A stretch of DNA of 64,000 bases, from contig NC_092670.1 in NCBI RefSeq assembly GCF_964355755.1, positions 8,918,201 through 8,982,200 of the forward strand, given 5' to 3'. The notes beneath the pieces were generated by a model. That model was not told where the DNA came from. It worked only from the letters and a program-made list of their open reading frames with translations, and ran no database searches. Position 1 is the first letter of the stretch. Each line of letters opens with the position of its first letter. Shown here piece by piece: positions 3,568 to 49,101 of the stretch. Both the position numbers and the translations under genes were made by a program. The DNA is from Antedon mediterranea (lineage: Eukaryota > Animalia > Echinodermata).

Positions 3568-4445
3568 CAGCTGTTTCAACCAATGTAAAATAAATAGAAA
3601 AAGTCAAGCGCCCTCAATATTGTCAGACGGCGATATGTGCCTGAGCGTGACGCCGCGCGAGTGGTTGAATCTCGTTCAACTTTCGCGACATTTGCAACTT
3701 TTATAACTACACTTTAAATTAATTTAATCAATTTCGTCATAAATATTATAAAACCATTTTTATACTATTTGTTAGAAAATAAGATTCTTAATTACCGATT
3801 TTTTGGAAATAGTAAGTAATTAAGCATAACAACAAGTTTACGAAATTATTTACACCCGGAAGTTTTAAAAATTAACATCGATCGGCCTAGCAAATGTAAA
3901 CAATGGAAAGTTTGAAAAAATGCTTGTCAAATTGTACACTTTTTGTTTTTATTCGTAATTTTCATAAATACTTGGAAAATCTAGGTAAAAGTTTGATTAT
4001 ATATGCTTACATGAGACATTGAATTGTTAGGAGGTGACGGTGAAAATCTCAAGAAATTTTCATTTAAAAACTCGACTGTTTTGTTAAATGCGAAACAGCG
4101 TATTTGGCGAGAGGTCGATGAACGCGGCTGATAACCGCTCGCTAGGCTGTACGCAACTAGGCCTAGGTTGTAGCTAGGCCTAGTTGGTACGTATAAGTAG
4201 TGTAATCATACTATACATCATTTTAATTTACAATAGAATAAATAATAAGCTTAATTATTATCATTGTATTTATTTCAACTGAATATAATTCATCATAAAT
4301 GTAAAAATTTAGTAAAACTACTAACTACCAGGCCTAGCTAGGCCCTTAAAATTAAAGCCTATACAAAAATACTCAAACTACTGTATGATAAATATAATAT
4401 AACATTAAAGGTTGGTAAAATTAAAATTTCTTTTCTTTTTTGTAG

Positions 4446-5330
4446 GCAACACAGTTTCACGAAAAGGCTTTACGTTCTACTTGCTTCTGTTGTGGAACAA
4501 AATTTTAAGAAAAGGATAAAAAATACAACTTAAAAAATATGAAAACCATCACAAATTTGCACTAAATCTAACAAATGTAAAATTACAACCTATATACATT
4601 TATACAACCTGCCATTCGCGAATTTTCAATGGATACTGTATACTACCACGCTAACATTTAAATTAACAGGGCATGGACCAAATTGCTTGGCATGCTACAC
4701 TTCAACAACAACTATGACCTGGGCCAAAACTACATTCACAAGTGAAAGAACACACTGGCGTTTAAGGGAACAGTTTTTTGTCTGGTACAGCTGCTCCATA
4801 ATCTGCTTTTCTTCTTTATATCTTCACTCTTTTTGAAAGTTTATACTAACAAATTTAATTAAATGAACATACCTCATAATCAAATAACTGTTTTCTCATC
4901 CTAATTTATATACATAGTTTAAAAAGCGCCAATTTTCAATTAAGATTACATCATACATTGTATATTTCTATTCAACAAAATTGTCAGAACTTTCTATTAT
5001 TTAAATGTCTAAGATAGTCAGATCTTGGGTCCATTCTACAGTCACCACAGATTGACTTTTTCATCACAAAATTTCTGAAATTATAAAATGTATTAATGTG
5101 TAAATTAAGTATTTTTTAATTCCATAAAAATATCATACAAGTATTTTTAGCAGAATACAGGCATATTGCACCAGGTGTAATACAGCCTAAGCTACATATG
5201 CTTGAGCACCATGCTATTGCATTCATGAGAGAATGGAAGGGGGTCTCAGAGCAAGGCGGGGAGCTAATACATGCCAAACTCAACCGTCACAAAACAGCAG
5301 TGTGGATTAGAGTCAAACTTAGACTCATCT
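4446..5330 (+). pseudogene. Chapaev/RAG1-like transposase relic (N-terminal Zn-binding Chapa/RAG1-N motifs plus C-terminal catalytic-Glu motif)
   Basis: After the acceptor at 4445: FHEKALRSTCFCCGTKF*, then LQPIYIYTTCHSRI and GHGPNCLAC (cf. RAG1 HQANLRHLCRICG / HPTEFCHNC / HPHTPSCDIC). 5150-5330 reads QPKLHMLEHHAIAFMREWKGVSEQGGELIHAKLN. Stops, frameshifts and a missing core. Confidence 0.7.
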
Positions 5331-5589
5331 GATTTTCACATCTCCAATGATACAAAATGAAATAATAAAACCCAACAAATGCAAGAAAGCCAACAAAGAA
5401 TGATTCATTAACATTAATGATCATAAAATATTGTACATTTTTAAATGTTAAAGGAATATTGCATTGTATTGATTTCCTTTTAACAATGCCTAATGATAAT
5501 GAATATGTAAAAGTAATACTATAGTATGTCTATATTTCAATTACTAACTAATTACTATTGATTGATAGTACTACTGCTGTACTGTACAT

Positions 5590-8210
5590 GTGTTAGTGAT
5601 TGATTGTTAAAGTTACAAATTCATAGCATGGTAAACACAATTTAAAATTTACTAGTTCTTGAACAGTAAAATAAACTTACCTATATAGATGGTAGGTATA
5701 GGTATTGGTCCAAATCTGTTTAAAATGTTTTAGCCATTTTGGGTTGCCACTATATATGTACCTAAAAAATAGTAATAGTAATAGTATAACATTATAATAA
5801 GAATTAATTAAAATTAACTTATTAAATTTACTATGGTTGCATACATACTAATTTGAATATGCAGTGATGAGCAAAAACAAATGTTAAAATTCATTATTTA
5901 TAATAATTGTAATTATTACATACAGGGTAGGCATATATGCCTTATGTCATTGCATAGGGTATATATAACCAGGTATCCTCATAATAAACATTATTTGTAA
6001 TAAATACTGTAAATATATTAAAAATAAAAATTAATAATAATTAAATAATAATATATAGGCATAGAGCCTCTAGGCCTAATTAGGTAGCCTACTAATACCT
6101 AGCCTATTGCTCTAGGCTAGGCTAAATAAGCTGGAAAGCTGCTTCTCTGTAGGCTGCTAGTGCAAGAGAGCACAGGTCTAGCTAGTATATTAAAATAAAA
6201 ATAGGGCCTATAATATAGGCCTAGCCTACCCAGCCAGTGGTAGTGATTGGTTGTTAATATTGAAAATTAATAGCATGGTAAACACAATTTAAAATTTACT
6301 AGTTCTTGAACAGTAAAATAAACTTACCTATAATATAGATGGTAGGTATAGGTATAGGTATTGGTCAAAATCTGTTTAAAATGATTTTTCCACTTCGGGT
6401 TGCCGCTATGTACCTAAAAAATAGTAAAACATTACTATAAGAATTAATTAAAATTAGCTTATTAAATTTAATATGGTTGCATACATACTAATTTGAATAT
6501 GCAGTGATAAGCAAAAACGAATGTTTAAATTTATTATTTATAATATTGTAATTGTAATTATTACATACAGGGTAGGCATATATGCCTTATGTCATTGCAT
6601 AGGGTATATATAACCAGGTATTCTCATAAGAAACATTATTTAAATAAAATACTGTAAATATATTAAAACTAAAAATAATAATAATTAAATAATAATATAT
6701 AGGCATAGAGCCTAGACCTAATTAGGTAGTCTACTTATACCTAGCCTATTGCTCTAGGCTAGGCTAAATAAGCTGGAAAGCTGCTTCTCTGTAGGCTGCT
6801 AGTGTTAGAGAGCACAGGTCTAGCTAGTATATTAAAATAAAAATAGGGCCTATAATATAGGCCTAGCCTACCCAGCCAGTGGTAGTGATTGATTGTTAAT
6901 ATTGAAAATTAATAGCATGGTAAACACAATTTAAAATTTACTAGTTCTTGAGCAATAAAATAAACTTACCTACTGTATATAGATGGTAGGCTGCTAGGTA
7001 TTGGTCCAAATCTGTTTAAAATGTTTTTGCCACTTTGGGTTGCCGCTATGTACCTAAAAAATAGTAAAACATTATTATAAGAATTACTTAAAATTAGCTT
7101 ATTAAATTTAATATGGTTGCATACATACTAATTTGAATATGCAGTGATGAGCAAAAACGAATGTTAAAATTCATTATTTATAATAATTGTAATTATTACA
7201 TACAGGGTAGGCATATATGCCTTATGTCATTGCATAGGGTATATATAACCAGGTATTCTCATAAGAAACATTATTTAAATAAATACTGTAAATATATTAA
7301 ACAAAAATTAATAATAATTAAATAATAATAGGCCTATATAGGCGTAGAGCCTAGCCTAATTAGGTAGCCTACTTATACCTAGCCTAATTGCTCTAGGCTA
7401 GGCTAAATAAGCTGGAAAGCTGCTTCTCTGTAGGCTGCTGCTAGTGATAGAGAGCACAGGTCTAGCTAGTATATTAAAATAAAAATAGGGCCTATGATAT
7501 AGTATAGGCCTAGCCTACCCAGCCAGTGGTAGTGATTGATTGTTAATATTACAAATTAATAGCATGGTACACAATTTAATATTTGCTACTTCTTGAACAG
7601 CAAAATAATCTTACCTATATAGATGGTAGGTATGGTCCAAATCTGCTTAGCCACTTCAGGTTACTGCTCTATATATGTATCTACAATAGTATAACATTAA
7701 TAATTATTATAACAATTTTATAAAATTAACTTAACTTATTAAATTTAATATGATTGCATACTAATTTGAATATGCAGTGATGAGCAAAACCGAATGTTAA
7801 TATGATGCTTGTCATTATTTATATTGTAATTATTACATACATATAGGCCTATAATATTCCCTATTGCATACATGTTACATAGTAGGGTATATATAATCCT
7901 CATAATATTAAATTTACAGTTTTTGTAATGAATACTGTAAATTTAATAAAACTAAAATTAATTATAATGATTAAATAATATTAAAAATATATAGGCCTAG
8001 GCGTAGATCCTGGGCCTAATTTTAATTAGGTAGCCTACTAATACCTATTAGGCTAGTAGGCTAGCCTACTCAAGGCCAGGCTAACTAAGCCGGAAAGCTG
8101 CTTCTCTGTAGTAGGCTGCTAGAGAACACAGGTCTAGCAAGGGCCTAGGCCTAGTATTAAAATAAAAATAGGGCCTATAATATTGGTATATGCCTACCCT
8201 ACCCAGCCAG
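5590..8210. repeat. ~645-bp tandem repeat, 4 copies
   Basis: tagtgattgattgttaa...cctacccagccagtgg recurs at ~5593, 6241, 6883 and 7529. The fourth copy is the most diverged. Confidence 0.92.
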
Positions 8211-9313: not shown

Positions 9314-10546
9314 CTATTCATAGGCAAACTGGGCGTGGAAGTGGAGGTTTTCCAAGAATCCCTCCAACATCCTAACCGCCGCTGCCCTCAGCTGGCCACT
9401 TCCCGGCTGAGCCAAACGCTCCACCACCTCCCGATTGGCATTGAATGCCGATCGCAGAGCAACTCTGTCGGCCCGCCTTAACTGGCATAACAGTGGCGTG
9501 GGTGAATGGATGTTGTTTTCCACGTTCGGTTGCCACCGTGCTTGGCGTGATGATGGTCCGGTCCGTTGACGTAGTGGTCCAGCTGGCTTGGGAAATCGAC
9601 GGCGTCTGGGCTCCGCCGAGGTAGGCCTACCATACCTCTGGCACAGCTCCACAAATGCCCCCTTATTATCCCTAGTGGCTCTCGCCACCAGGAAAAGGAG
9701 ACACCGAGTGTGGAGCAGACCCAGCGGTGACACTAACGGCGATAGAGTGTTCAACTCGGGCATCTCGAGCCCCGCCGCCTCGCCCATCGACTCCATCATC
9801 TTCCTTAGAGATTTGGTGAAGAAGAATAATCCAGGCTGGATTCTCCCCTCGGCGTTGAAAAGTGCTACCGCCTTGGTGACACTCCCGCCGCACTCCGGAA
9901 CGAGTTTCACTAACTCCTGGATGAAACTCCAGCGCCGAGATGAGGTGGTCGACGATACCTCCGGCGATGTTTCCGTCATGAATGGCGGTATGTGGTGCGC
10001 CAGGTGTTGTTTTGGGTTTTCGGGCACCCGGCCACATCCTGCCACTGGACACAGGAATGCCCGACGTGACCGTTTACCCGATTCCATCTGACCGCCTTCA
10101 GGATGAGGTCTTTTGTTGTCTTTCGACCGTTTGTCGGCCTTTCTCTGAGATTTAACTTTTGGTACCGCCCCAGCACTAGGTGGAACAGCACTGGTCGCCG
10201 TACCAACGAGACGGACGTCTCGGCACGCAAAGTCCGACTCCTTACTTCCTGGAGTTCGCCATACCTTCACGGCTGGCGCGGCGGGAAGCAACTCTTTACG
10301 AAAAATGGAGGGGGACTTTGGCCTCTCCGGCGATCCTGCCAAGACCTCTGGCGTCTCTCTGCCCTCAACTACTGGCGGATCTGGGTCCCCGACCTCCATC
10401 GCCACATCATCTTCTTCCAATCCAGTAGGTGAAGGTGGAGACTTTCGTTTCGCAGCTGGTTTGCCCAACGGCGGGAAGTCTTCCACCTGCAGCAGGAACA
10501 ATTCCTCCTCCACCGTTACTCGATCGGAAGTAGTGCAGTTATCCAT
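9314..10546 (-). CDS. LTR-element accessory ORF (410 aa), disordered N-terminus and C2H2-like CPVAGC...HLAHH motif; function unknown
   Basis: Intact GC-rich ORF in the env-like position. The ATG at 10546 is directly preceded by the acceptor tgttttacag. No RT, integrase or env motifs recognised. Confidence 0.7.
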   Translation of the reverse strand: MDNCTTSDRVTVEEELFLLQVEDFPPLGKPAAKRKSPPSPTGLEEDDVAMEVGDPDPPVVEGRETPEVLAGSPERPKSPSIFRKELLPAAPAVKVWRTPGSKESDFACRDVRLVGTATSAVPPSAGAVPKVKSQRKADKRSKDNKRPHPEGGQMESGKRSRRAFLCPVAGCGRVPENPKQHLAHHIPPFMTETSPEVSSTTSSRRWSFIQELVKLVPECGGSVTKAVALFNAEGRIQPGLFFFTKSLRKMMESMGEAAGLEMPELNTLSPLVSPLGLLHTRCLLFLVARATRDNKGAFVELCQRYGRPTSAEPRRRRFPKPAGPLRQRTGPSSRQARWQPNVENNIHSPTPLLCQLRRADRVALRSAFNANREVVERLAQPGSGQLRAAAVRMLEGFLENLHFHAQFAYE

Positions 10547-10689
10547 CTGTAAAACATTAAGAGGCAAAACACAAGTTTAGTACAAGATAGTATTTCTACC
10601 CCTCGATTACAAATTGTTGGGACGAAAACTCTGGCGCCTGTAACAAATAGTGATCATCGTTTCCGCCAGAGGAGTTCCAACATCTCTTC

Positions 10690-11330
10690 AGAGCTAGTTA
10701 CCGAGTTATTTGTGATGTCACTGCCGTGAAGAATGTACAACGTAAGTAGTACATGGCTGCTTTCCCCTTCTTACCTAAGTGAAAAGCCTCCTTCTTCTCC
10801 GCCAGGTTCCATCCACTAATTCGGGCATACCCCTCAAATCTATCCCAGAAAATGTACCAGTCATTTTGACCGAAAAATTCCAGGTTTCTCTGAGGGCGGA
10901 AAAGTAGTCTTTTCCGACGCTCACCTCGCCATTCTTCATTATGACCGTATCAACCACGCAAGTGGTCCCTATCCACATAATGAACTCAGCGCGGATCACG
11001 TCCGAAACTTCCGCCATTACTCTCTCTTCGGACGTACTCGTTCGTATTGTCCTCATTACCGCGATCTCGATCATTGTAATCGAAACCTCGACAATCAGTC
11101 CGAACTTGACCGACATCGTCCGAGTAGCGTTTATAGCGATTACCGTCGATGTACCCCTGTGGCGACATTCCCATTCTACGACCTCGATTAGGATACCGTC
11201 GTTCGGACTCTCGATCTGTTGCGTCCCCCTTGACGATTTATTGATCGCCAAGGAACTCGACCGCGTTCCATAGGCACAAACCTATTGGACTCGCCGCCAG
11301 CTCGTTCATCGAAACGCATGTTGTCATCGC
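10690..11330 (-). pseudogene. gag relic
   Basis: An R/D/G-rich stretch with stops, then LEFFGQNDWYIFWDRFEGYARISGWNLAEKKEAF...GKAAMYY, matching the Gypsy capsid N-terminal pattern F.G..DW..F...FE..A...W...K. Confidence 0.7.
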
Positions 11331-14047: not shown

Positions 14048-15125
14048 GGGTGTCACGAAAGCTCAGACCACGAAAGCTCAGACCCCCTAAGACCTAAGAT
14101 CACGAAAGCTAAGACCCAACACCTAAGATTACAAATATTTATCTTTCGCACCTGCCTTGTATTTTAACTCCCAACATTTATTCTGAATACCACACCTTAG
14201 AATTGGCACTTTCATGAAAAAGAATCACATAAAAAGTAACAAATACATTTTTAAATTGATGATTTTACAGACGTTTTTCTCGCACACAAAATGACTAGCC
14301 TACAGTACTACAGTAGGCCTACCCCATGTTCAATGTTTTTGTTTCTATGGAACGTCAAAAGAGCAAAAATTATATAGAGGGCTGAAAACTCTGTGGAGTC
14401 CATCTACAGTGTGGATGGAACAATGTAAAATTAAAATTGTAATGATAATAGTATAATCATGTAAGTACGAAGAAATAAATACTGGCAAATAAATTTTAAT
14501 TTAAAAATCATGATAAGTTTTTTTGTTTCGTTTTCTTTCTGTTTTTATGCTTGTACTATTATTGTTGCTCTTTTGGCGCTCCATGGAAACAAAAACATTG
14601 AGCATGGTGGGAGCTCGAGGAGTTACATTACAGTATACAAAGAAACACATATGTAAAATCATCAATTTAAAGGATTTATTTATTTGTTATTATGTGTTTC
14701 TCCTTCTGAAAGTACTTATAAGTCCTAATTTTAAAGTGTGGTGTTCAGGATAAAGTTAGTCAACAAATTTGGAGTCAAAATACAAGAAAGGCAGGTGCGT
14801 AAGAAAAACATCCTCTGAACCAACACAATGGAGTAAATATATACCAACAAACAACCCGTCAAGTTTGTTTGTTGTAAAGAAAAAATATACATTTACTCAA
14901 CGGGCGAAAATAATGTGAGTTTATCTATGTTTTGCGGTAGTATTAAATTATATTTATGGTAATAAATGAAACCTACTGTGTTTAAAATTATGTATGGATT
15001 AACAAGTATTGTTTTTAATCTGTAGTATATCTTAGTATTTGTAATCTTAGGTGTTGGGTCTTAGCTTAGGTGATCTTAGGTCTTAGGGGGTCTGAGCTTT
15101 CGTGGTCTGAGCTTTCGTGACACCC
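14048..15125. mobile_element. Complete Mutator-type MITE
   Basis: ~90-bp TIR GGGTGTCACGAAAGCTCAGACCACGAAAGCTCAGACCCC. 10-bp TSD ATGTCGGCGC (14038-14047, 15126-15135). Confidence 0.92.
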
Positions 15126-17331: not shown

Positions 17332-17859
17332 GGGGGGGGGGGGGGAGCTCGAGGAGTTACATTACAGTATACAAAGAAACACATCTGTAAAATCATCAAT
17401 TTAAAGGATTTATTTATTTGTTATTATGTGTTTCTCCTTCTGAAAGTACTTATAAGTCCTAATTTTAATGTGTGGTGTTCAGGATAAAGTTAGTCAACAA
17501 ATTTGGAGTCAAAATACAAGAAAGGCAGGTGCGTAAGAAAAACATCCTCTGAACCAACACAATGGAGTAAATATATACCAACAAACAACCCGTCAAGTTT
17601 GTTTGTTGTAAAGAAAAAATATACATTTACTCAACGGGCGAAAATAATGTGAGTTTATCTATGTTTTGCGGTAGTATTAAATTATATTTATGGTAATAAA
17701 TGAAACCTACTGTGTTTAAAATTATGTATGGATAAACAAGTATTGTTTTTAAGCTGTAGTATATCTTAGTATTTGTAATCTTAGGTGTTGGGTCTTAGCT
17801 TTCGTGATCTTAGGTCTTAGGGGGTCTGAGCTTTCGTGGTCTGAGCTTTCGTGACACCC
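17332..17859 (+). mobile_element. Right half of Mutator-type MITE, TIR abutting and truncating the MULE transposase
   Basis: Matches ~14610-15125, is preceded by a G-run and ends GTGACACCC at 17859. Confidence 0.88.
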
Positions 17860-20377
17860 GGAAACGAGCGGTTATACATTCTCGTTTGATGCAGTAGAAC
17901 TTCCTGGTAAGTTTGGTAGAAACAAGTTTGTTCCCCTTGTTATTTGGATCCGGATATAGCCACTTCTCATCATGGTAAATTGCAATATTATAAGGGATGA
18001 TTTCTTGTCTCCGTGGGAATTCCGTGTGACATTGTCTGCATTCAATGGCTCTAGATTCCTTCATAATAAAACAGACCACAAGAGAATTGTTGTTGTGGTG
18101 AATATCAGTGTAAGGGCGTGTAGTGGCAGTAGTTGTAGCTCTGGGACGATTACGCCATTTGTTCTTGTGTGTTCCTCCTTTTTTACCGCTTGTTTCCGTG
18201 ACCTTTTCGACCAATGCACATTTTGAGACCAGATGCTTTTGTTTGAGGTGATGTAGATGTGACTTTAAAATGCCGTTAATTTCGGCAACACAAATGGAGT
18301 GTTTGCACAAACCATTGTATTTATAACAAGGGCAGGTACAGTTCGCATGATCGGAGTAAACTACACACTCATACATACCGCTCTTGCAACTTTTAGAAGC
18401 GACTAAATATTTTGTCGGACCGTTCGTCAAAGAGGGCATTTTCTGCACGCCGTTTTTGCTGTTGAGAATTTTGGTAGCTTCATCAATGATCGTTTTGATC
18501 AGACCATCAGAGTGACCTGTTATGCTTAACAGAATGGTTAAGTCCTCTGAGAATGTCTTGTATTCATAAAGATCTTTCTGGTTTTGCCCAGTTACAATTA
18601 TGGTTTTCTTTTTGATGGCATCTTGAATTGTCAGCTTGTTGAACTTATCAATATATTGCTGCCTTTCCTCCTTCTCCCATTCAAACCAATCATCAGGCTC
18701 AACTGCGAGGTAGCTTGCTATCTCTGCCAGTTTATATTCGTCACTTAGCCCACAGATTGCCAAACCCAGCTCAATTTGTTGTTGGCGGTCTACTTCCTCC
18801 CAAACATCTCTTACGAATTCCAACTTAGTCATGTTGGTTTTGTTTTTTTCTTTCTTTACAACAGCTTCCTTTTGGCGAGTTAATTTGTTGTTTATGCTCT
18901 CCGATTGGTTGGAGTAGCATCTTTTTGTTTTTCCTGTGTTGTCTGTTGGCATTCCCGCCTTCCGCCTCGCCGATTCTACCATACTGGTTGCCATCATCGT
19001 TTCGTGGGCAGCAAGGTAGGCCCAGAATTGTGGTGATCTGCATCCAGTAACCAATGTTTCATGGTTATCTATTACTTTTTTCGAAGCTGTAAGGCGACTT
19101 TTCAAATCATCACTGTCACTTGCATCTAATATTCCTTCATGTTTACCATCTCCGAAAACCGAATCAATGATTGGTTTCTGTGACTTCTTTTGCACCCCTA
19201 ATCTCTTTAGCTTTTCCACGCAATTTATGCGAAAGTGTCTGAAACACCTTAACCCGGTTGCCCTTTTCATTGATTCTTCTATTGCACCATGTAACGCTGT
19301 TTCTCCATCTGTGATGAATCCCAACCCATCTTCAAGACCAGGACAGTTTCCATTGACAGCAGATGCTATTTTTCTGTATGTTGCTCTGTCCTTACTGCTA
19401 TGAATAGCAGTTGGGCCTAGAAAAACTGGTGCTTCTCCGGTTCTCTTTGTTACCAACATAAGATGTTTATATGTATATGGCGTTACCTCGTATTTTCCGA
19501 AACTGTATGTTGGATCAACACTGAAAGGATGACTAAGCCCTTCTGTTCGGGAAGTACAGAAACGCGAAAGGTCTTGGCACATATGTGGCTTACCCAAAAC
19601 CCAAAGATCCTCTGGAACATCATGGTGTTCTAAAACTATCGGCTCTTCTTTATGCTTTGAGTATAATAGGAGGTCATCCACACTGTCATAATTTAATGAT
19701 TTATTCTTTATATCGTGGAGTTGTTTTCGTGATCTTGGTAGTTGACCTGGATTTCGAGAATTGTGTAAACCTCCAAAGTCGTCAAACACTTTCTTAAATG
19801 CAACTGACACAGACTTAGTGGATACTTCCTTCTTCAAAGCTTCCATTGTGCTTTTTTGGGTTGGATAGTAGGGTGTTCTACCATGCTTCCTATTTCCATG
19901 AGGTTCGACAGTAAACTCTACTGGATCGTCGTTGTTATTACATGTATTGTACTGTAATAAACAGGTTTTGTTCACTATATCATTACTTCCTTTAGTTAAA
20001 AAGAAAATGGAGCGACACAAGCCATGGCAATTTTTCTTAGAGTTCACATGAAGATGATATTCGCTTTCATTTTGAAGCTCTACTTTCTTTTTTTCAAGAA
20101 TATGTATTTTCTCTCCAGTGATGCTTATTGTCCATATACATAAACGGAGCACATTGCGATATATACCATTCATGTCATTTTTTATGTCCTCCCAGTTCTT
20201 GTATCTCGATACATCAATTAAGAAACTCATGTTTCTTCTTACTCTGAGTGGTGTCTTTGTACATTTATTATGCTTGTTATGTCGTAGTATTGTAACTGCC
20301 TCAGTCACAGTGTATCGTTGACGCCTAAATCGTTCAAATATTGGTAATTCATCATCGTTCTTATACGACATCACATC
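17810..20377 (-). CDS. MULE (Mutator) transposase exon with SWIM zinc finger
   Basis: SVDPTYSFGKYEVT, FLGPTAIHSSK, FITDGETAL, LRCFRHF (CxxH), SNQSESINNKL, SWIM CTCPCYKYNGLCKH. The last ~16 codons read into the MITE TIR. Confidence 0.9.
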   Translation of the reverse strand, partial: DVMSYKNDDELPIFERFRRQRYTVTEAVTILRHNKHNKCTKTPLRVRRNMSFLIDVSRYKNWEDIKNDMNGIYRNVLRLCIWTISITGEKIHILEKKKVELQNESEYHLHVNSKKNCHGLCRSIFFLTKGSNDIVNKTCLLQYNTCNNNDDPVEFTVEPHGNRKHGRTPYYPTQKSTMEALKKEVSTKSVSVAFKKVFDDFGGLHNSRNPGQLPRSRKQLHDIKNKSLNYDSVDDLLLYSKHKEEPIVLEHHDVPEDLWVLGKPHMCQDLSRFCTSRTEGLSHPFSVDPTYSFGKYEVTPYTYKHLMLVTKRTGEAPVFLGPTAIHSSKDRATYRKIASAVNGNCPGLEDGLGFITDGETALHGAIEESMKRATGLRCFRHFRINCVEKLKRLGVQKKSQKPIIDSVFGDGKHEGILDASDSDDLKSRLTASKKVIDNHETLVTGCRSPQFWAYLAAHETMMATSMVESARRKAGMPTDNTGKTKRCYSNQSESINNKLTRQKEAVVKKEKNKTNMTKLEFVRDVWEEVDRQQQIELGLAICGLSDEYKLAEIASYLAVEPDDWFEWEKEERQQYIDKFNKLTIQDAIKKKTIIVTGQNQKDLYEYKTFSEDLTILLSITGHSDGLIKTIIDEATKILNSKNGVQKMPSLTNGPTKYLVASKSCKSGMYECVVYSDHANCTCPCYKYNGLCKHSICVAEINGILKSHLHHLKQKHLVSKCALVEKVTETSGKKGGTHKNKWRNRPRATTTATTRPYTDIHHNNNSLVVCFIMKESRAIECRQCHTEFPRRQEIIPYNIAIYHDEKWLYPDPNNKGNKLVSTKLTRKFYCIKRECITARFRVSRKLRPRKLRPPKT

Positions 20378-23300
20378 CTACAAATAATAAATAAACAGTA
20401 TTATTGTAAGATAATATATAAATTATTTATTTTAAGGCTATACCTATTACACTGCCCTTTGTTTTCAAACGGGGGAGTCGGATAAAGGAAACAAATGCGG
20501 CAGTAAAAAAAATCGTAACGTGTATAGAGCTAAATTTCCTGTTGAATTTAAAGATACTCATTAAGGACCTCATTGGAAACAAGTCCGTAGAGAACTTTTA
20601 TGAGTTATCCTTGGCATCCTTTCTTGTTTTATTCATGGTTTTTTAAATTTGCTATTTTAATTGTTTGTCTGTGATTTTTTTATGTACTGATGCCGAAATA
20701 AATCAAATCAAATCATACTGTATGCCTACTTTTGCTATTTATTGCATACGGTAATCAATTGGTCAATGACAGATTGTAGTTTAGAACTACAGCCAATATT
20801 TAAGGGGTTGTTTGTAATTCCTTGTTATGGCGGTGGAACAAGTGGCTTATATCAGAACTTGTGAATGAATCATATTCACATGAAAATTTAAAAATATCTT
20901 ATAGCTAAAATAGGAAATAAATAAGTAAAATATATATTTTGGACAGTCATCATTCACCTTTTCACCGTATACATCGGATTTAACTTTCGGTACAGGTAAT
21001 TCCATTTCAGTTGTTGTTTTATGACCAGAAATATTTGGTCCTGTAGGCCTACTCGTAACATGTATATTTTTTGAAATAGAAGTAGCGTCATTTGCCTAAA
21101 AAATATAAATTCATTCATGTAAGCTTTATTCCAATCAAACATGTATACTGTAATAATAATTATAAGAAACAAAATTACATTTATTTACAATCGCTTTTTG
21201 CCAGTTCAATGGCAATAACTGTCGATTTGTCTAACTCATGCTTTCTATAACAGGCATGAATTACTTCCAATATTGATTTCACACAGTGTTTATAATTATA
21301 AATAATCATTTTAGTACAGTAATATAGTATACCGTACCTTAGTGTCATATACGTCATCGTCCGAGATTACAATCGTAAAGTCATCATCAGATGAATTAAT
21401 ACCACCTTGTAGGCCTGTACAGCTTGTAAAAGGCGTAGTGTAAGTCAGATTCTATAAAAACAAGAAAAGTTGTCTACATGTCAATTACTGTGTTATACTA
21501 CGATCTATTATTAGAATTGTTATTGTCAAATCAATGACACAGTTGATAACTGGCTTTAAAAATTTACTCATCTCAACTTCACTCGTTGTAGGCGTACCAT
21601 TATAATTACATTTAATTTTGAAAAAGGGAGATGACGACAACATTGTTAATAGGCCTATATATAATGTAATCATACCGTACCTTTTTGTCACAATCAACGT
21701 CATCGTCCATTATCGTAAAGTCATCATCAAATGAACTGATACCACTCATTAGGCCTGTACAGCTTGTAGTAGGCGTAGTATAGTTCGGACACTATAACGG
21801 ACAAAACAAATTCAACACTATGAGTAGGTCTGTATGCAGCTTGTCTAGTTTCAAAAAGGTCATTGTTTTAAATATGACTGTAATATGTATTGTTTATTCC
21901 ACTACGTTACGAATGTAACCGTTCTAACTGAATCTGTAGGTCAGATTATAAAGAATAGATAACGACACAATTTTTAATAAATAAATAAATTATGTAATAA
22001 TACTGTACCTTATTGTCACATTCAACGTCATCATCCGATATTACAATCGTAAAGTCATCATTGAAAATGCCACTCTGTAGGCCTGTACAGCTTGTAGTAT
22101 TCGTAGTGTATACCGGACACTGTAACGAACAAACAGTGCAATTATTCTTCAACAAACTATTGTTAATTATCTTTTACGAGGGTACCATTCTAACTAAATT
22201 CGTAGGCCAGATTATAATAAAGACTCTCTATTGAAATTTAGAGGAAATGAAACAATTTTTATTTAATGTAATCATACCGTACCTTTTTGTCACAATCAAT
22301 GTCATCGTCCGAGATTATCGTAAAGTCATCATCAAATGAACTGATACCACTCTGTAGGCCGGAAAAGCTTGTAGTAGGCGTAGTATAGTTCTGACACTAT
22401 AACGGACAAAACAGACGTTCAATGTAATATTAAATTGTTTTAAAATTTAAAAAAAAATTTTATTATAGTGAACTCAGCAGTTTAATTAACTTTCGGTAAT
22501 AAAGGTAGGGTAAATTTTCAGAAGTATGTAACAGAGTCAGGTCTAATGCCCGCTCCCAAAACTTGTATTTGTAATTTATTACCTATAGTCCTAATTTGGC
22601 TTTTAAAGTCTAAGTGATTTTTCCGCCCGTCTAGATTATACTATACAACATTTTTAATGACAGTATAAACAAAAAACACAGGCTAATTTAGATTTTTTAA
22701 GCTGTCACTGCTGTGCCGTTTTAAAAAGACTCTTCCTTCTATTCCACCCTTATGGATCACTTTATTTTAAAAACATAAATCTACAAATGATTGTCATTTA
22801 TCATGAGGTTTTGAAGTGAAAAGGAAGAACTTGAACTTGAGAGTAGACCTGTAACAGACAGTGTATGGCCGTGATGCTCATCGACTTCTTAACCTTTCTC
22901 TTATTATAAATGCCTATACACGTTAACGAATCTGGGGGGAAATGTATACCTTGCTCTCTGAGAGTACACTTGTAGGCATCTCATTTGTTGTTTCTTCACT
23001 GGATGAATCACTGGGGTCACTAATATAGACACTCGCAGAAGAACTTGGCATCTGTAAGTTATTTATGAAAATAGATAACTGTAACAGCACCATGAATCAT
23101 TGCACATTCACGAACCATAGCTATTTTATCTACTGCTTCCATAGCCTAATTAGAAAATAAATACTCATCATTGATTTCTTTTAAAGGTTTAACATGGATG
23201 ACATAATATTAATATAATTATACCTCTGAATGCATAGTTTTGACATGTTTATACTTAGGAGAACTGGATATGGACGGGCTCTGAAGAAACGAATGTCTGG

Positions 23301-24349
23301 AATGATAAATGAGAAATTATAAAAACGGGTACACAAAATATTCATCCGTACACAGTTTAGAGCAAATTAAAAAATATATGCCTTGCTCAAAACATTATTT
23401 TTCCATATTCTCGTGCTGCAGTATTTTATTAGCCGTACTTGTTTTGAGACTCTACATAATTAAGTTATATATTGAGCTATAATTTTTTTTTACAGTACAG
23501 TAAGTACTATAATATAATTATTGAAAGTAGTAACTTTACTTTCCCCCTTATGAAAACGGAGACCCAAGGCCAATTATGTATAGCTTTACCATACTTAATT
23601 TATTATCATTATCATCATAAGGTAAACTAAATCATAAACATAATCAATTACCTTGATACCTGCTCCTTCACTAGAGAGAAAGATTGTAGTTGGTCTACGT
23701 CAACACCACTATGTCTCATCCGTTTCCAGACCCAAGAGCATAGCTCATTAACGGAAGTTACGTCGGTCGATGGGAGCACCTTTATTATTCCTTGGCCGTT
23801 TCCACCTAGTTGTTTTTCAACTGGGTGGGTATCAATTATAAAATAATTTCTGCGAGTGCAACCAATTATAATTATATACCCGCCACAGGTATATAGTGCT
23901 ACATTTAGCCTTTCATTTTCATTAGGATTCAGTTCGATTACAGCCTTTACAAGAGCATTCCGTCCTTCGTCTGTATATACACGTTCCTGTACAATCATCT
24001 CCTCTGTAATACTATAGGGCGAAATCAGGTTTCCATTTCTTAAGACCGTGTAGGCTTCCAGGACATCATAGAATGAAGCAATATTACGCAAATAGTTGAA
24101 TAGTCTTGGTGAATCGATAATAATATGCTCAATTGCCGATTTAATTTCTTCACCAAAAAATGTATTCCAGTTCTTGATGAGCCTATCAGCGATTATCAAC
24201 CCTAAGAAAGCACATGCATTTGTTGCATCATTTGGAATGGCTAGGCCTTCCACTGGGTCTTTGCAAATCAAACTACCTTGCTCAACTATTGTGGAGAGAT
24301 CAAACTCCTCAACAGCACTAGTTTGGCTGTACCTTAATGGGATATCCAT
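17860..24349 (-). CDS. Spliced Mutator transposase fusion: tegument-like Cys protease + SIM-like repeats + MULE DDE + SWIM (~1330 aa, C-terminus truncated)
   Basis: Exons 24349-23652, 23296-23224, 23051-22950, 22396-22283, 22119-22009, 21791-21681, 21451-21338, 21095-20958 and 20377-17860. All are GT-AG, phase-compatible and stop-free. Confidence 0.75.
21338..22396 (-). repeat. Four duplicated phase-0 mini-exons (111-114 nt) encoding DDDFTI(V)ISDDD
   Basis: CQNYTTPTTSFSGLQSGISSFDDDFTIISDDDIDCDKK; CPVYTTNTTSCTGLQSGIFNDDFTIVISDDDVECDNK; CPNYTTPTTSCTGLMSGISSFDDDFTIMDDDVDCDKK; NLTYTTPFTSCTGLQGGINSSDDDFTIVISDDDVYDTK. Each ends AAG|gtac. Confidence 0.88.
23652..24349 (-). CDS. Herpesvirus-tegument-like (VTD / peptidase C76-like) cysteine protease exon
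   Basis: YSQ...ATNACAFLGLIIA (oxyanion Gln and catalytic Cys helix) and a beta-strand YFIIDTHP (Asp-x-His), the Cys...D-x-H order of UL36/M48-type deubiquitinases. Confidence 0.65.
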
Positions 24350-26816: not shown

Positions 26817-27410
26817 AGTTTTTTGTTTCGTTTTCTTTCCCGTTTTTATACTTGTACTATTATTTTTTGCTCTTTTGGCGCTCCATAGAAACGAATATTG
26901 AGCATGGAGAAGAGTTAAGAGTATACAAAGAAACACGTCTGAAAAATCATCAATTTAAAGGATTTATTTATTTGTTTGTATGTGTTTCTCCTTCTTAAAG
27001 TACTTATAAGTCTTAATTTTAAAGTGTGGTATTCAGGATAAAGTTAGTTAACAAATTTGGAGTCAAAATTACAAGGCAGGTGCGAAAGAAAAACATCCTC
27101 CAAACCAACACAATGGAGTAAATATATACCAACAAACAACCCGTCAAATTTGTTTGTTGTAAAGAAAAAATATATATTTACTCAACGGGCGAAAATAATG
27201 TGAGTTTATCTATGTTTTGCGGTAAGTATTTAATTATATTTATGGTAGTAAATGAAACCTACTGTGTTTAAAATTATGTATGGATAAACAAGTATTGTTT
27301 TTAAGCTGTAGTATATCTTAGAATCTGTAATCTTAGTCTTAGGTCTTAGCTTTCGTGATCTTAGGTCTTAGGGGGTCTGAGCTTTCGTGGTCTGAGGTTT
27401 CGTGACACCC
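26817..27410 (+). mobile_element. Right terminus/TIR of the Mutator element, likely the end upstream of the fusion gene
   Basis: Diverged copy of the family right arm, ending GGTTTCGTGACACCC. Confidence 0.8.
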
Positions 27411-27643: not shown

Positions 27644-28163
27644 GGGTGTCACGAAAGCTCAGACCACGAAAGCTCAGACCCCCTAAGACCTAAGATCACG
27701 AAAGCTAAGACCCAACACCTAAGATTACAAATACTAAGATATACTACAGCTTAAAAACAATACTTGTTTATCCATACATAATTTTAAACACAGTAGGTTT
27801 CATTTATTACCATAAATATAATTTAATACTACCGCAAAACATAGATAAACTCACATTATTTTCGCCCGTTGAGTAAATGTATATTTTTTCTTTACAACAA
27901 ACAAACTTGACGGGTTGTTTGTTGGTATATATTTACTCCATTGTGTTGGTTCAGAGGATGTTTTTCTTACGCACCTGCCTTTCTTGTATTTTGACTCCAA
28001 ATTTGTTGACTAACTTTATCCTGAACACCACACATTAAAATTAGGACTTATAAGTACTTTCAGAAGGAGAAACACATAATAACAAATAAATAAATCCTTT
28101 AAATTGATGATTTTACAGATGTGTTTCTTTGTATACTGTAATGTAACTCCTCGAGCTCCCCCC
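27644..28163 (-). mobile_element. Inverted half Mutator-type MITE
   Basis: Reverse complement of ~17340-17859, including diagnostic variants and the G/C-run break point. Confidence 0.88.
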
Positions 28164-31799: not shown

Positions 31800-33545
31800 T
31801 CTCAATGAGATCCAAATTGACAATTGCCGCAAAATCCTCACTGAGTTTGACGTTGAAATTCACTCTAGAACTAAGAAGTTGAAAAGAGAACTTCCTGCAT
31901 CCTAGTTTCAAAACAAACTCAGGATTATCGCCAATGACTGCCGTAAACAATCAACGATAATGGCCCGAAGGGAACATCACAAATTTGGTCTACCATGCAG
32001 ACTTGGTCATTTCAACACAAATGACTCTACCTTCGGATGACTTCAGGGCTTTTAGGAAACCCTGCAGAAGGTTCGTTGGGACATATAACAAGAATCAGAG
32101 CAACACCTCTGATTCAGTTGTTGAAATTGTCGACTTTCCGAAGGAGAGAAAAAACTTCCTTCCCGAGGACTTAAATTCTGCCCAAAACCAAGGCAGGTCG
32201 GCGCACAACAACTATCTTTGGATATAGAGTCTTTTTCTAGAAGATTACGATTACGTGAATATTTTGCTGATTCAGACACCACGCAAAACGAAGGCAACGT
32301 TAACAAATTTAAACCAAAAAGTTCCTGGAATCCACCTAAAAATCGTTGTCCAGCTTTAGAAACATTTATCCAGGCTATTGAGGAGGATGTACAAAACTAC
32401 GTCCCGAGTCCAGATAAACGTGACAATCTCAAAACAAGAGAGGCAGGCCATTGCCAAATTGCGTCAGCGTAATGATATCATCATTAAACCCGCTGATAAA
32501 GGTTCTGCCACTGTTGCTATGGACATCAAATTTTATTAAGAGGAATCCTTAAGACAGCTTCATTATATATCGTAAACTCACAACGGAACCCACCCCGGAA
32601 ATTGCGGATAAGGTGGCAAAATCTGTTTCTGTGATGGTAAAAAAAAACACTCCATCGATCCTAAGATTTACAGTTACCAAATCCACTAGTAGCGTTGATT
32701 TTGTGGACACTATAGTGACCATAGAAAATGGTACTCTCAAAACTGACCTATTCCGTAAACCCACTGATAAAAATATGTACCTGCTCCCTAGCAGTTGTCA
32801 TCCCCAACATTGTACTAAAAACATACCGAACAGTAAAGCATTACCTATCAGACGTATCTGTTCTTCAGATTTAGATTTTCAGAATCGTACCGAAGAACTA
32901 ACCGGACATCTCCGGAATAGAAATTACAAACCTATCAACCTAGGTTGCCTCCATTACGGGGCTATTAATTTATTGAGAAACATATGCCCATTCTACAGTC
33001 CACAGAACGTCTCAGGACTGTTTTTCCGGAACCACCCATTATTGCATTTCGTAGACCTCCCAACCTTCGTGATATATTAGTCAGATCCAAATGTAAGAGT
33101 GAAATTAACTCTCATGACAGTCAAAATTTGGGCAGTCACCTTTGCGGCAAATCTTGCAAAACTTGTTCATTGGTTGATTCTACTGAAAAATTTAAGAGTA
33201 ACCAAACTGGCCACATTTTTCGGATAAGACAATCAATTAATTGTCTAACCAAAAACGTCATTTATCTCATATACTGTAATATTTGTGGCAAACAGTACGT
33301 CGGAGAAACCAAAAACACTCTCCGTATGAGAATGACACAACACAGATCAGCTATCAACACATTAAAGCTTGTTCAACCTGTAGCCGAACATTTTAATTCA
33401 TCTGGTCACTCGATAACAAATTTCAGAGTTATTGCAATATTCCATGTGTCAAATGGAGCGACAAAACTTGCAAAGACAAGGAAAACCACTGGGAATTACA
33501 ACTTAAAACCACAAAACCTTTTGTACTTAACATTAGAAACATACT
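31800..33545 (+). pseudogene. Penelope-like retroelement RT / GIY-YIG endonuclease, frameshifted and internally deleted
   Basis: FSRRLRLREYF, KSSWNPP, IIIKPADKGSATVAMD, TDLFRKPTDKNMYLLPSSCHP, NVIYLIYCNICGKQYVGETKNTLRMRMTQH. The RT catalytic core (Y/FxDD) is missing. Confidence 0.9.
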
Positions 33546-33614
33546 CCCAGGTTGGTAAAATTATTCCATTGTCTACCTAAATTTAAGTATCAATATTAAC
33601 CACCATTTAAGCTG

Positions 33615-33927: not shown

Positions 33928-36214
33928 AACGTTTCTGGCTGTTTTACTTTAGCCTTTTGATTTAGCTTTTCACTTTTTTTTTGTATCTTTATTGAGATTC
34001 AGCCACTGATACCCACAGCATTGTCATTTTTTCAGTTATTTGCCTTTGGATTTATATATATAAATATATATAGAGGATTAAGATTATAATATACAGCATT
34101 TAAAATTACCAACTATTAATTAATCAAATCACTTTTGATTAAGTTACTACAATCCTGAATTTGATTAAGGTGATTACTAAGCTTTCTCTTAAAATAGGTT
34201 GCAAGAGTTACAGACGAATGTATCTTTGACATTCAAAGGCAAGGAATTCCAGATCCTCACAATTCTTAGCAGGAATGCTAAATTTACTCGAATCCGTACT
34301 TGTTTATATTTGGCTTATATAAGTTTGAAGTGAAACTCTTAAACTATTTTTCCCTTTAAAATGGTAATGGTCATTTTATCGTCATTGATGTGATATATTT
34401 TCAATTGTTTTGTGTTAGTTCGATTAAAGTTAAACTTTATTCAATTAAATATGTTGTTTTGTGTGGTTTTTTTGTTGGTATCTACAATATCTAAGGATAT
34501 ACTTGGGGTAAATGGGGGAACTTTAGAGGGGTCTGCCAGTGCCAAGGCAGTGTACAGATAGTCTGTTATAGGTCATTTGATATTGCTTACAATGTGCTAA
34601 ATCATAATTATAACATTGGTTGCTGGTGGTATCTACAATATCTAAGCTAGGCCAGTTGGGGGAATGGAGTCTCTAGTCGAACTTTAGAGGGTCTGCCAGG
34701 GCCAAGGCAGTGTACAGATAGTTTGTAATAGGTCATTTGGTGATTGCTTACAATGTGCTAAATCATATAACATTGGTTGCTGGTGGTATCTACAATATCT
34801 AAGCTGGGCTAGTTGGGGAAAGAGGGGTCTCTAGTCTAACTTTAGAGGGGTCTGCCAGGGCCAGGGCAGTGTTCAGATAGTCTGTAATTATAGGTCATTT
34901 GGTATTGCCTACATGTGCTAAATCATATAACATTGGTTGCTGGTGGTATCTACAATATCTAAGCTGGGTTAGTTGGGGGAAGGGGGGCCTAACTTTAGGG
35001 TGTCTGGCACTTGCGGTGCAGCAGACAATTAGTCTGTTGTTATCCATTTAGTATTGTATGAACACAACTTGTTCGTTTGGAATTGATTTTGAGTGGTACC
35101 TCATCACTCATCTATGCTAACCCCATTTTAGGCCCTCCCTCGGGGGGTCTGGCGGGCCTTTTGCAGCAGAGAAAAAGTCTGTCGTTTGTGATACTGTTAT
35201 AAGGATGCCAATGGGCATCCCATGGTGGTAAAATTAGGTGGTATCTCTCTCATCTAACCTGTGCCGATTTTTTAGCACGTTTCGGGGTCCCCCCGGTCTA
35301 GACGCAGCAGGGGGTACCCGGCAGACTCCCATTTTCATTCACTTCAAGTGACCCCCAACACACTCAAATAGTCAGATATTGGTACCTAGCTCATCTAACC
35401 AAATGTCTCTGGGCTGCCGGTCTATTAGTTGCGTATTCGCTTCTTGTTGCTATACGCTTGGGTGCACACGGAACAACACATTTACTGATGAATTATTCAT
35501 GTTTATTTTGTGACGTTTCATGAGGGGGTCCCCAACTTATGTACGAAAAAAAAAATCGCGCGCGGGTCAGCCATTTAAAATTTTACTGAGAAGATCGAGT
35601 TAAGACTATATATATTTAGGAACCATGGCGGTACGGTAACTTTTATATTTTTTAGGCCCCCAACAAAGTATGATCGCCACGAACCACGCACTTCATAGCG
35701 TCACAAGAAAGCGCTAGGCCCCCTAAACATTCCATCGCGTGGTGAATTGCCGCATCTCCCATTGTCGCTATGGCGTGACGTAGCTCAAGTCGGACTTGCG
35801 CGAAGAAAATAATGTAATTTGTATACAGTTGTAAATAAAGATGATTTTCATTATTATAATTTATACCAATGTATATTTAATTAAGCTAATATAAATATAG
35901 ATATTTCATTCATCAATATCTGGCCAATATAACAACTCAATGATTGTTACGTTTTTTATAAACATCGTTTAAAAACCATTTAGTCGACCATTTAGTCTGC
36001 CCCCTCCAGGACTAAAAAAATCGATCAAAATCCGTCTCGATTTAGTCGAGGTTGGCCTGATTTAGTCGGTGATTTAGTTGAAGTTCGGTTTATGAATTAA
36101 AATGACGTCATTTTTTAAGTTTTAGCTCGAACTACGACTAAAGTCCGGTTTAAGAATACGGGCGTAAGTACGAAAGCCCATTAATGCCATTTGAAGTATA
36201 TGTTTTTCGAACGT

Positions 36215-36950
36215 AATCCGTTCTAACGAATTAGTAATTCGTTTGAACGGATTAATAATCTGTTCAAACGAATTAGTAATCCGTTCAAACGAATTGCAAC
36301 ATATACAACAAGTGCCATTTAAAGTATATGTTGTAATTCGTTTAAACGGATTACTAATCCGTTCAAACGAATTACTAATTTGTTTAAACGGATTACTAAT
36401 TTGTTCAAACGAATTACTAATTCGTTCAAACGAATTACTAATTTGTTTAAACGGATTACTAATTTGTTTAAACGAATTAATAATTTGTTTAAACGGATTA
36501 CTAATTCGTTCAAACGAATTAGTAATCCGTTTAAACAAATTAGTAATTTGTTTAAACAAATTAATAATTTGTTTAAACAAATTAATAATTTGTTTAAACA
36601 AATTAATAATTTGTTTAAACGGATTACTAATTTGTTCAAACGAATTACTAATTTGTTTAAACGAATTAGTAATTCGTTTAAACAAATTACTAATTCGTTT
36701 AAACAAATTAGTAATTCGTTCAAACGGATTAGTAATTCGTTTAAACGAATTAGTAATTTGTTTAAACGAATTACTAATTCGTTTAAACAAATTAGTAATT
36801 CGTTTAAACGAATTACTAATCCGTTTGAACAAATTAGTAATCCGTTTAAACGAATTAGTAATTCGTTCAAACAAATTACTAATTTGATTAAACAAATTAC
36901 TAATTCGTTTAAACGGATTACTATCAGATTAGTAATTCGTTCGAACGGAA
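36215..36950. repeat. 21-bp subterminal tandem array in left TIR
   Basis: Unit taatt(c/t)gtttaaac(g/a)aatta(g/c), near-palindromic. Confidence 0.95.
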
Positions 36951-38057
36951 TATTCACTCATTAGTTGAGGGCGCAATTTACCAAACTTTTGACACTACTT
37001 TTACACCACCACCAGTACCGTACGTAGTACCGCGTGTTGGTGTTGGTTGTTCTTATTAAAGTTGTTTGGTAAGTGTATTATTATTATTGTTATTATTAGT
37101 GTTATTGTTATGAAACTATTAACGAATTAAATGTTACAGCATAGTAGCCTAGGTGTTAATTTTTTTCACGCTGCTGCTCTAGCCCGCTACGTCCCATTAG
37201 GACTACTCAATCAGAAGCTAAAGCAGGCAGCAGTTATAGTATCTAAGGATGACAGAAATGCGAAAATGGAAACTCCACTTTAATTTATTGATTCCAGCTG
37301 CTACAACCAAAAAACGTCTGGGAAAAGAGTCTATTAAGACATGTCATGCTAAAATTACAAATCCCAAAGCATTTCTTGTATTTGACTATAATACTGACTT
37401 TTGACTGTAATTCACTGTCAGATATTCATTGAATTATTATCAAAACAGTCCATTAAAGTTTGTGTTTGAAATAGGATACTTCACACTTGAAATATCTAGG
37501 TTGATGAAGTGACCTCCAGACTTGACCTTAGCAATAAAAAATTAACTAAAGTGACAGAAATTGAGTATTCACTTCTGTAACCAAAAAATAATATTTATTC
37601 ACATATAAAAAGAGAAAAGAAACCACAATTTAAGTATTTGTTGCTTTAAATTACCCTTTTTTCAGGGAAAATAACTATTATGTGACAATAAAATGACACA
37701 TTCAAAAACAAATTTGAAATAAAAAATATGTGTCAATAAGCGAGCAGCGTTTTTTGTAAGGAATATTTCTTGTTTATTCAACTTCTCACTAACTCTGTTA
37801 GTGAAGAATCTGGACCAACACCTTTAAAACGGTCCAGTCCCAACTGTGCGTGTTATGCCCAACTCAAGCTCGACAGTATAGACCTGTTGTTTATTTGACT
37901 AGTAGTAACAGTTATCCTTACAGGCCTATGTCTAAAAAATTGTAACAATAAACAATAATAATTGATTTAGATAATGAAAATAACCGTAATCGCTAACCAT
38001 TTTGTTTGTTTATTTGATAGAATCTTGATTAATTCGTATGCGTTCAAGGACACAAGT

Positions 38058-39302
38058 ATGGAAAATAGAAATCTTATTCGATTATATTTCCATTTTGGTT
38101 TAAATTATGAAGAGATAATTGAACGCATGTTTATGGAACATGACGTCCTGTTGAGTGTGCGAACTCTAAAGCGAAGACTTAAGGAAATGAGTCTTTTTCG
38201 GAGAAAATATCATTCGGATATACTAGATGTTGCGATGTTTATTGAGGATCAAATAAATGCATCAGGTCAATTACACGGGTACAGATGGATGCACATGCGA
38301 TGTAAACAAAATGGCTTAAACGTTGACAAGGAGACGGTCCGTATCATTTTGGGTGTTTTAGATCCGGATGGAGTTGCTCTAAGGAGAAGAAAACGACTAC
38401 AGAGGCGACGTTATTTGGTACCAGGCTCGAACTTCATGTGGCATATAGACTCGTATGATAAACTGAAACCTTATGGTATATGCATCAATGGATGTATTGA
38501 TGGTTTTTCTAGACGTGTAATATGGTTAGAGGCTAACTCAACTAGTAGTGATCCTAAGGTAATAGCCGGATATTATATACAAGCTGTTAGAAATTATATG
38601 GGTTGTCCCAAATTTATACGAACCGACTTTGGAACAGAAAATTCAGTTGTCGGTTCGATGCAACAGTTTCTATCGAAAGAAAATAGCAGTTTCATCCGTG
38701 GTACAAGTCAACATAATCAAAGAATAGAGAGTTGGTGGAGTATTCTTCGAAAACACTGTGCACAGTTCTGGATGAATGTATTTAAACAATTAAAAAATGA
38801 TGGAAGGTTTGATGGTGGCCACATCGACAAGTCGTTGATACAGTTTTGCTTCATGAAACTTATTCAGGTAAATTCATACAATTCGAAACAAACAATTGTT
38901 CATTCATGATTTTTAAACTAGCAGATAATTAACATAAACTAGTCAAGTGAATATTTGGTTTATTATTCTTCTCAGAAAGAACTTGACATAATTGTAAACG
39001 AATGGAATGCCCACCGTATTGCAAAATCAAGAAACTGTCACGGGCCTTTTGGAAGGCCCGAAATGATGTATACCATGCCTCATCTTTATGGAGGAGAAGA
39101 ATTCATTGTAGGTGTTGAAGCTGATGAAATTGATGTATGTGGTACTGAATGTACTTTTAAATGTCGAATTCCTTGTGATAAAGATGTCTTTGACCTGTCT
39201 TCAATTCTGATAGAAGAAAGGCAATTAACAATACCAACAAGTTGTGACGAAGGATTGCAACTGTACAACAGTTTAAGAAACATACTTTTAGAAATTGTTT
39301 GA
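38058..39302 (+). CDS. IS3EU-type DDE (integrase-core) transposase, 2 exons, apparently intact
   Basis: Exons 38058-38867 and 38976-39302 (phase-0 GT-AG). HTH SVRTLKRRLK, WHIDSYDKLKPYG, GCIDGFSR, IRTDFGTEN, SQHNQRIESWW, WNAHRI. Confidence 0.9.
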
Positions 39303-49065: not shown

Positions 49066-49101
49066 GTTCGAAAAACATATACTTCAAATGGCATTAATGG
49101 G

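Follow-up and report, generated by a model that had tools for sequence, protein, structure and literature searches.

In a 64,000-nt stretch of the Antedon mediterranea genome (contig NC_092670.1, hereafter the window), four tandemly duplicated exons are predicted to encode a linker that joins a VTD deubiquitinase domain to a MULE transposase, and we regard the chances as roughly balanced that this linker binds SUMO and so guides the deubiquitinase either to chromatin marked with SUMO or to the transposase in its SUMOylated form. The proposal is drawn from sequence patterns in the window and in related proteins. A protease combined with a likely targeting motif, and in relatives also with a kinase, gives a testable model in which the element would counter SUMO-targeted ubiquitination at its own sites, and the exons of the ladder form a natural series in which the number and strength of the motifs vary.

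The four homologous exon-like units lie on the minus strand, each between an AG acceptor and a GTAC donor. Repeat exons A (22396-22283) and D (21451-21338) are 114 nt long and repeat exons B (22119-22009) and C (21791-21681) are 111 nt long, so the four homologous exons of 111–114 nt described in the original prediction are indeed present. Its claim that splice sites and frame are kept holds as well: the AG/GT dinucleotides are found everywhere, all four exons are phase 0-0, and frame 0 is free of stops in each, with 1–7 stops in the other two frames. Pairwise identity ranges from 89/117 to 104/114. All four indels counted between the exons are multiples of 3, again as claimed, compared with 16 of the 99 gaps in alignments of the intron flanks, where the gaps are partly alignment noise. 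The acidic-hydrophobic-acidic core, also said to be kept, is complete (DDFTIVISDDD) in only two of the four copies, B (NDDFTIVISDDD) and D (DDDFTIVISDDD), and has been shortened by in-frame deletion in the others, A being one residue short (DDDFTIISDDD; FTIISDDD) and C eroded (DDDFTIMDDD; FTIMDDD), which places two of the four exon indels inside the motif core. None of the four copies departs from the DDFTI stretch, and the repeat cores are spaced ∼37 residues apart. A comparison of exon D with PDB chains gave no match. Contigs from sequencing run X1, which may be the window's own sample, span 30 of 30 bins of 21200-23400, and the ladder is therefore not an assembly duplication.

The introns had been said to diverge around the conserved exons. 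This is true of whole introns between repeats, which align at identities of 0.49–0.59 against ∼0.50 for shuffled flanks, but the first ∼100 nt 3′ of A and B are still alignable, with mismatches at 21/92 positions there versus 17/108 in the exons. Repeat exons A and C are identical at 104 of 114 positions and have short flanks in common, with a shared block of 154 nt at 93%. Because homology runs into the introns in both of these pairs, the duplicated unit, to judge from the alignments, is the phase-0 exon plus its flanks, copied in tandem, and A and C would be either the youngest pair or a pair homogenised by conversion. Starting from about one motif, such growth would have produced four, two of them good and two weakened. 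Across the four repeat exons the pooled dN/dS is 0.48; five pairs lie at 0.32–0.61 and A/C at 1.82, the latter from seven nonsynonymous changes versus one synonymous change. Fisher tests for selection on three pairs gave p values of 0.03, 0.25 and 0.16, so that one of the three reaches 0.03, and in a neutral, substitution-only simulation the frame and splice sites survived in 2–13% of runs. Coding constraint on the repeat exons is thus likely, though modest.

With five further exons the repeats join in frame into a 1342-codon ORF on the minus strand (24349-17810), in which all introns are GT-AG and no stop or frameshift occurs across nine exons, and splicing into one 1342-residue protein is predicted. 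Predicted exon 1 (23652..24349) encodes the VTD (Peptidase C76-like) domain, residues 1–232, with Cys46 and Asp173-Thr-His175, and ends in a phase-2 donor; an alternative phase-0 donor two codons earlier would create a stop in exon 2 and was rejected, and the sequences of relatives suggest that in them, too, the VTD ends in a phase-2 junction. Exon 2 (23224..23296; 73 nt, phase 2 to 0, AG/GT) would restore the frame with a Ser/Pro-rich linker. Exon 3 (22950..23051; 102 nt, phase 0-0) carries a weak SIM-like VYISD with an acidic/Ser tract; the fifth motif that the original prediction placed in this exon, SVYISDPSDSSSEE, is there as stated, though it departs from the published SIM patterns at more than one position. 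The four repeats would come next, then a further linker exon, exon 8 (20958..21095; 138 nt, phase 0-0), and exon 9 (17810..20377), which encodes the MULE transposase with its SWIM finger; all of these exons are on the minus strand. Upstream, a possible short leader exon (24511-24469, minus strand) consists of an ATG, 14 codons plus one base and a GTGAGG donor, fits the phase of the acceptor that immediately precedes 24349 and could have replaced the kinase part. Since all four repeat exons are phase 0-0, skipping them is possible, but the flanking exons 3 and 8 have the same phase, so this property is not special to the repeats. Pfam found no RING domain in the two domain exons, and no RING-like Cys/His pattern occurs in the linker exons. 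In this predicted VTD-MULE ORF the repeats are the linker and do not stand alone as a SUMO reader.

Exon 1 is a divergent VTD/Peptidase C76 subfamily. Pfam assigned it to no family at E ≤ 0.1, PF04843 included, and a PDB sequence search gave no relevant match. In the ESM Atlas, exon 1 falls on PF04843 Herpes_teg_N clusters at 0.96, with a recognition value of 2244, just below the 2300 mark. Single-sequence fold prediction yielded no usable model (pLDDT 35.5), and a model from a seven-sequence alignment reached a pLDDT of 68. Searched with Foldseek, the latter model matched only VTD or cytomegalovirus M48 chains at E ≤ 0.001 (5/5; TM scores of 0.44–0.53), the best being 8adc, 8adb, 8add and 2j7q with E values of 2.9e-4 to 7.7e-4. 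Cys46 and Asp173-x-His175 agree with the VTD active site given in PMC9741609. Among 92 homolog segments spanning both motifs, the catalytic Cys, Asp and His occur together in 78; residue by residue, Cys is present in 91, His in 92 and Asp in 79, with Glu in the remaining 13. The domain would be expected to cleave ubiquitin.

Exon 9 has 67 homologs, at up to 56% identity over its whole length, the named ones coming from corals and sea cucumbers. It has the features that mark Mutator/MULE transposases, namely a SWIM finger and a DDE triad whose second Asp is followed by C865xxH868, and D775, D844, H868, E980, C1169, C1178 and H1180 are invariant in 29/29 aligned relatives, with C865 conserved in 28. 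It falls on MULE/SWIM clusters of the ESM Atlas at 0.90–0.91. The Pfam MULE profile matches the window at E 0.092 and relatives at E 1e-4 to 1e-3, the latter falling short of the curated cut-off. Homology to P0001 and P0003 ends at 17861, 33–34 residues short of their ends, where a 520-bp MITE arm starting GGGTGTC (17340..17859, minus strand) interrupts the 3′ end of the transposase; the last ∼16 codons of exon 9 are read-through into this arm, and about 33 C-terminal codons have been lost, a piece that was not found in the window. A search with 23 kinase-bearing relatives found no kinase remnant in the window either. This copy is therefore damaged: it is without a kinase, its C-terminus is truncated, and no right end lies in the window.

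The element ends belonging to this copy (TIRs and TSD) were not found. A complete MITE of 1078 bp (14048..15125), bounded by terminal inverted repeats and flanked by a target-site duplication of 10 bp, has ends like those of the coral element L001, described below, and a MITE-type left end on the minus strand (26819..27410; 91% to the MITE over 611 nt) is possibly the left end of the autonomous element. The 520-bp arms at 17340-17859 and 27644-28163 are 100% identical, inverted and share the same poly-C end point, and their termini face inward and enclose the whole gene; this arrangement suggests a recent rearrangement driven by transposon ends. In the pieces examined from small shares of sequencing runs X5-X7, only related copies of the transposase exon were seen. 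Run X8, presumed to be RNA, showed no coverage over the repeat exons and no listed splice joints, a result that bears in neither direction on expression.

Other parts of the window contain further repeats and coding fragments. At 47348-45408 (minus strand) two adjacent ORFs are split by one stop, the second matching Pfam HECT at E 4.7e-7, which by this match is a second ubiquitin-system gene in the window. An integrase-core ORF lies at 37971-39299 (plus strand; Pfam rva_4, E 7.5e-30, and a weak Clr5 match), and broken ORFs at 32125-33577 (plus strand), which resemble a Penelope-like retroelement, have a GIY-YIG match (E 1.5e-4) at their end. A short broken coding fragment (26330-26050, minus strand), located between the gene and the end at 27410, has a WVVVNY...YPGVV...WPD pattern and is what we take to be a Tudor-like tail from a different DNA transposon. 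The GC-rich ORFs at 9317-11281 (minus strand), 420 and 168 aa long, have no Pfam match. A 21-bp near-palindromic satellite occupies 36213-36923 and 48265-50558, with long blocks open in several frames and nested inverted segments, and tandem arrays of 101, 41 and 157-bp units occur at 1041-2972, 43426-44687 and 56599-58510, respectively.

A full HMMER search with exon 1 returned 374 proteins, of which 152 were analyzed (150 plus P0069 and P0070). Named relatives are mostly cnidarian and include Sanderia malayensis, Clytia hemisphaerica, Actinostola, Porites lobata and Paramuricea clavata; no related loci were found in viral contigs or prokaryote genomes. An HRDLKPxN-type kinase motif is present in 23 of the 152 VTD proteins, and in relatives the kinase directly precedes the residues at which the window ORF begins. 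In eight of the 152 a MULE match lies on the same chain as the VTD, and six of those eight also match a Pfam kinase, one of them below the cut-off. Because these database proteins show the fusion, the kinase-VTD-linker-MULE architecture does not depend solely on the predicted exon model. When longer transposase fusions were sought, P0042 alone was returned; in the profile search, many kinase matches dominated the results. In a quick tree, whose unlabelled rows are mostly single-exon ORFs and from which no gain or loss is read, VTD-fused elements are scattered. Two proteins left out of the tree, P0260 and P0279, carry a VTD and then a different long domain that is MULE-like by eye and has no match to the transposase profile, and the VTD cassette may therefore sit on more than one transposase clade. 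From a coral metagenome, L001 is a complete MULE of 6918 bp (124-7041) with TIRs starting GGGTGTC and a 10-bp TSD; its open frame, predicted to span five exons and at least 1058 aa, contains a poly-Lys stretch and has neither VTD nor kinase.

The SIM-like reading of the motifs is carried by the family more than by the window. Using the SIMa, SIMb and SIMr patterns of PMC3395311, none of the five window motifs matches exactly, the four repeats being off by one position and the fifth motif by more, and the window linker holds four near-matches versus 2.3 in its own shuffles (reached in 339/2000), which is not above chance; on the published patterns the case for the window is weaker than for its relatives. 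Under a looser definition (PMC12751080), a core of four residues, three or more of them hydrophobic, between acidic/Ser flanks, all four repeats qualify, with an IVI core in B and D and with FTII and FTIM in A and C. Among relatives, we collected 29 post-VTD segments, eight bounded by a MULE match and 21 tails of at most 150 aa, some of the tails probably being intron read-through; the other 123 of the 152 proteins had no VTD end or no 40-aa tail. Exact SIMa/b/r motifs number six in six of the 29 linkers against a shuffled mean of 1.4, and 5 of 2000 shuffles reached the observed motif count and 0 of 2000 the protein count. The remaining 23, P0063 and P0192 among them, have no exact SIM. With one mismatch allowed there are 31 motifs versus 22.6 in shuffles, and 15 of 29 proteins versus 14.4, the latter not an enrichment. 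ELM-like patterns gave 14 versus 7.7 for the parallel form (27/1000) and 7 versus 5.2 for the antiparallel form (275/1000), again without enrichment in the second case. A VIDLT-like pattern, written after the linkers had been viewed, occurs 7 times versus 0.2 expected and 0 times on reversed linkers, at a density of 2.3 per 1000 aa in linkers versus 0–0.12 in domains; the window copy has no VIDLT-type motif.

Independently of these pattern counts, L001 has SIM-like motifs: VEVVVINDSP and DTIVIPDSP lie in the exon before the transposase, after the Lys-rich stretch, and P0085 contains the SIM-like VILSD and VLISDS. An exon-3 paralog from the same and a related organism, represented by one 374-nt contig with loose ends read by hand, has IYISD and IIVLSD at sites where exon 3 of the window has VYISD and a decayed SVLSE. 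Contigs matching 22981-23012 in runs X1, X3, X5 and X7 come from this paralog, which shares its acceptor and start with exon 3 of the window, carries stronger SIM-like motifs and, in X1, shows a 6-nt in-frame length variant. Internal duplications occur in 6 of 31 linkers or N-termini: P0241 (four 30-aa units), P0042, P0266 and P0299 each duplicate a motif that is, by eye, hydrophobic and then acidic/Ser, and P0214 and P0243 duplicate linker segments without a clear SIM.

If the motifs do bind SUMO, as we infer, the linker would have a low affinity per site and some avidity, as the tandem SIMs of RNF4 have, and would place the deubiquitinase at sites of SUMO-dependent ubiquitination, whether the transposase or the chromatin at its breaks. 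SUMO-targeted ubiquitination would thereby be undone, such that the transposase would be spared degradation or repair and silencing signals at the breaks would be dampened. The motifs do not always accompany the protease, and because L001 has SIM-like motifs with neither VTD nor kinase, they may in essence do no more than localise the transposase. A broader proposal, which we put forward tentatively and would sooner expect to fail than to hold, is that an animal Mutator group of wide distribution carries a signalling cassette on its transposase, made up of a kinase, a herpesvirus-type deubiquitinase and an expandable SIM array. Phosphorylation of a Ser adjoining a SIM raises affinity (PMC12751080), and the kinase could phosphorylate the Ser by the SIM cores and so switch SUMO binding on. 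The whole would be a SUMO-targeted deubiquitinase, the mirror image of RNF4, whose repeated exon duplications would record an arms race over SUMO-dependent transposon control.

The ladder could instead be the tolerated growth of a disordered acidic spacer, with selection acting only on the open frame and splice sites while the extra motifs drift, an account that we consider unlikely, though a serious prospect. It would explain the deletions within the cores of A and C, the high A/C dN/dS (on few changes), a window linker no richer in near-matches than its shuffles, the duplications without a clear SIM in P0214 and P0243, and a frame and splice sites that neutral simulation retains in some runs; it accords less well with the pooled dN/dS, the invariant DDFTI and the family-wide SIM enrichment. 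Improbable, to our mind, is that the motifs are LIR/AIMs for ATG8-family proteins and would tie the protein to autophagy. The two kinds of site, SIM and LIR, overlap in structure (PMC12751080), and F-T-I is retained in all four copies where the SIM-specific V-I-S is not. Compared with the p62-type LIR/AIM (acidic, then [WFY]-x-x-[ILV]), A, B and D fit with DDF-T-I-[IV], three of the four copies, but LIR patterns are not enriched in relatives (13 versus 17.4 in shuffles, and 1 versus 1.8 for acidic LIRs), an aromatic residue is absent from the motifs of L001, P0085 and the exon-3 paralog, and a SIM is favoured both by the SDDD that follows and by the family context. Transposases, moreover, act in the nucleus.

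We give little credence to a dead or untranscribed copy, or to a VTD and transposase on separate transcripts, in which the ladder would be a recent fossil with no present function. The missing kinase, the transposase cut at 17861 by a MITE arm, the absence of a right end from the window and the rearranged MITE arms on both sides are what such a copy would look like. Against this stand the 1342 codons that run through nine exons uninterrupted, the existence of fused relatives with a phase-2 junction suggested at the same VTD end, and a variant contig over 22072-22196 with five intron differences and one exon difference, the latter read as synonymous. Scarcely any credence attaches to the version put forward originally, a dedicated poly-SUMO reader of the RNF4 type, possibly a domesticated host gene, with its valency set by alternative exon skipping. 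Four cassette-like phase 0-0 exons and the avidity that RNF4 gains from tandem SIMs (PMC3901395) speak for it, but the setting is a multi-copy transposon with MITEs and paralogs, no RING was found, the adjoining non-repeat exons share the phase, and two cores are eroded; a regulated host poly-SUMO reader is not supported. The SUMO-binding linker of a VTD-MULE element is thus the reading we prefer.

It has repeatedly been noted that transposases carry ubiquitin or SUMO proteases as fusions. Ulp1 and OTU domains occur on Ginger, Mutator and Helitron proteins, for which a role in transposition has been suggested (PMC2836005), and Table 1 of the PMC6446971 survey includes a Hydra MULE with an OTU domain, the main text making no mention of a kinase. 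VTD deubiquitinases (Peptidase C76) are described in Helitrons and herpesviruses by Erven et al. 2022 (PMC9741609), who propose that the VTD shields transposition proteins from degradation and mention cnidarian VTDs fused to unnamed transposon domains; the words 'MULE', 'Mutator' and 'kinase' are absent from the main text and three supplements of that paper. Our search, whose scope excluded most subscription journals and Repbase, found no description of a kinase-VTD-SIM-MULE fusion, of which a prior record is possible, and no literature on a transposase with a SUMO-interacting motif.

The likeness to RNF4 and other STUbLs that the original prediction drew is a loose one. Several short hydrophobic-acidic motifs lie in tandem in a disordered region beside a ubiquitin-system enzyme in both (PMC3901395), but here there is no RING, the enzyme would remove ubiquitin instead of adding it, no VIDLT-type motif is present, the spacing is ∼37 residues and two of the four motifs are eroded, and no homology is claimed. 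Closer in kind are the Ulp1/OTU Mutator-like elements, MuDR-6_HM and Ginger1 (PMC6446971, PMC2836005), which are likewise transposase-protease fusions with introns and with cnidarians among their hosts, and which have TIRs and TSDs of 9–11 bp, ends of a kind seen here in L001 and the window's MITE; the family described here differs in its N-terminal protease of another family, in the kinase that relatives carry and in a SIM-like linker that has undergone repeated duplication. With the VTDs of Helitrons and herpesviruses (PMC9741609) it shares the fold, the catalytic Cys and D-x-H, as well as carriage by a DNA transposon. Unlike the Helitron VTDs, however, the carrier is a MULE DDE transposase and not RepHel, and unlike the VTDs known from that work, the relatives of the window copy have a kinase directly in front of the domain and a SIM-like linker behind it.
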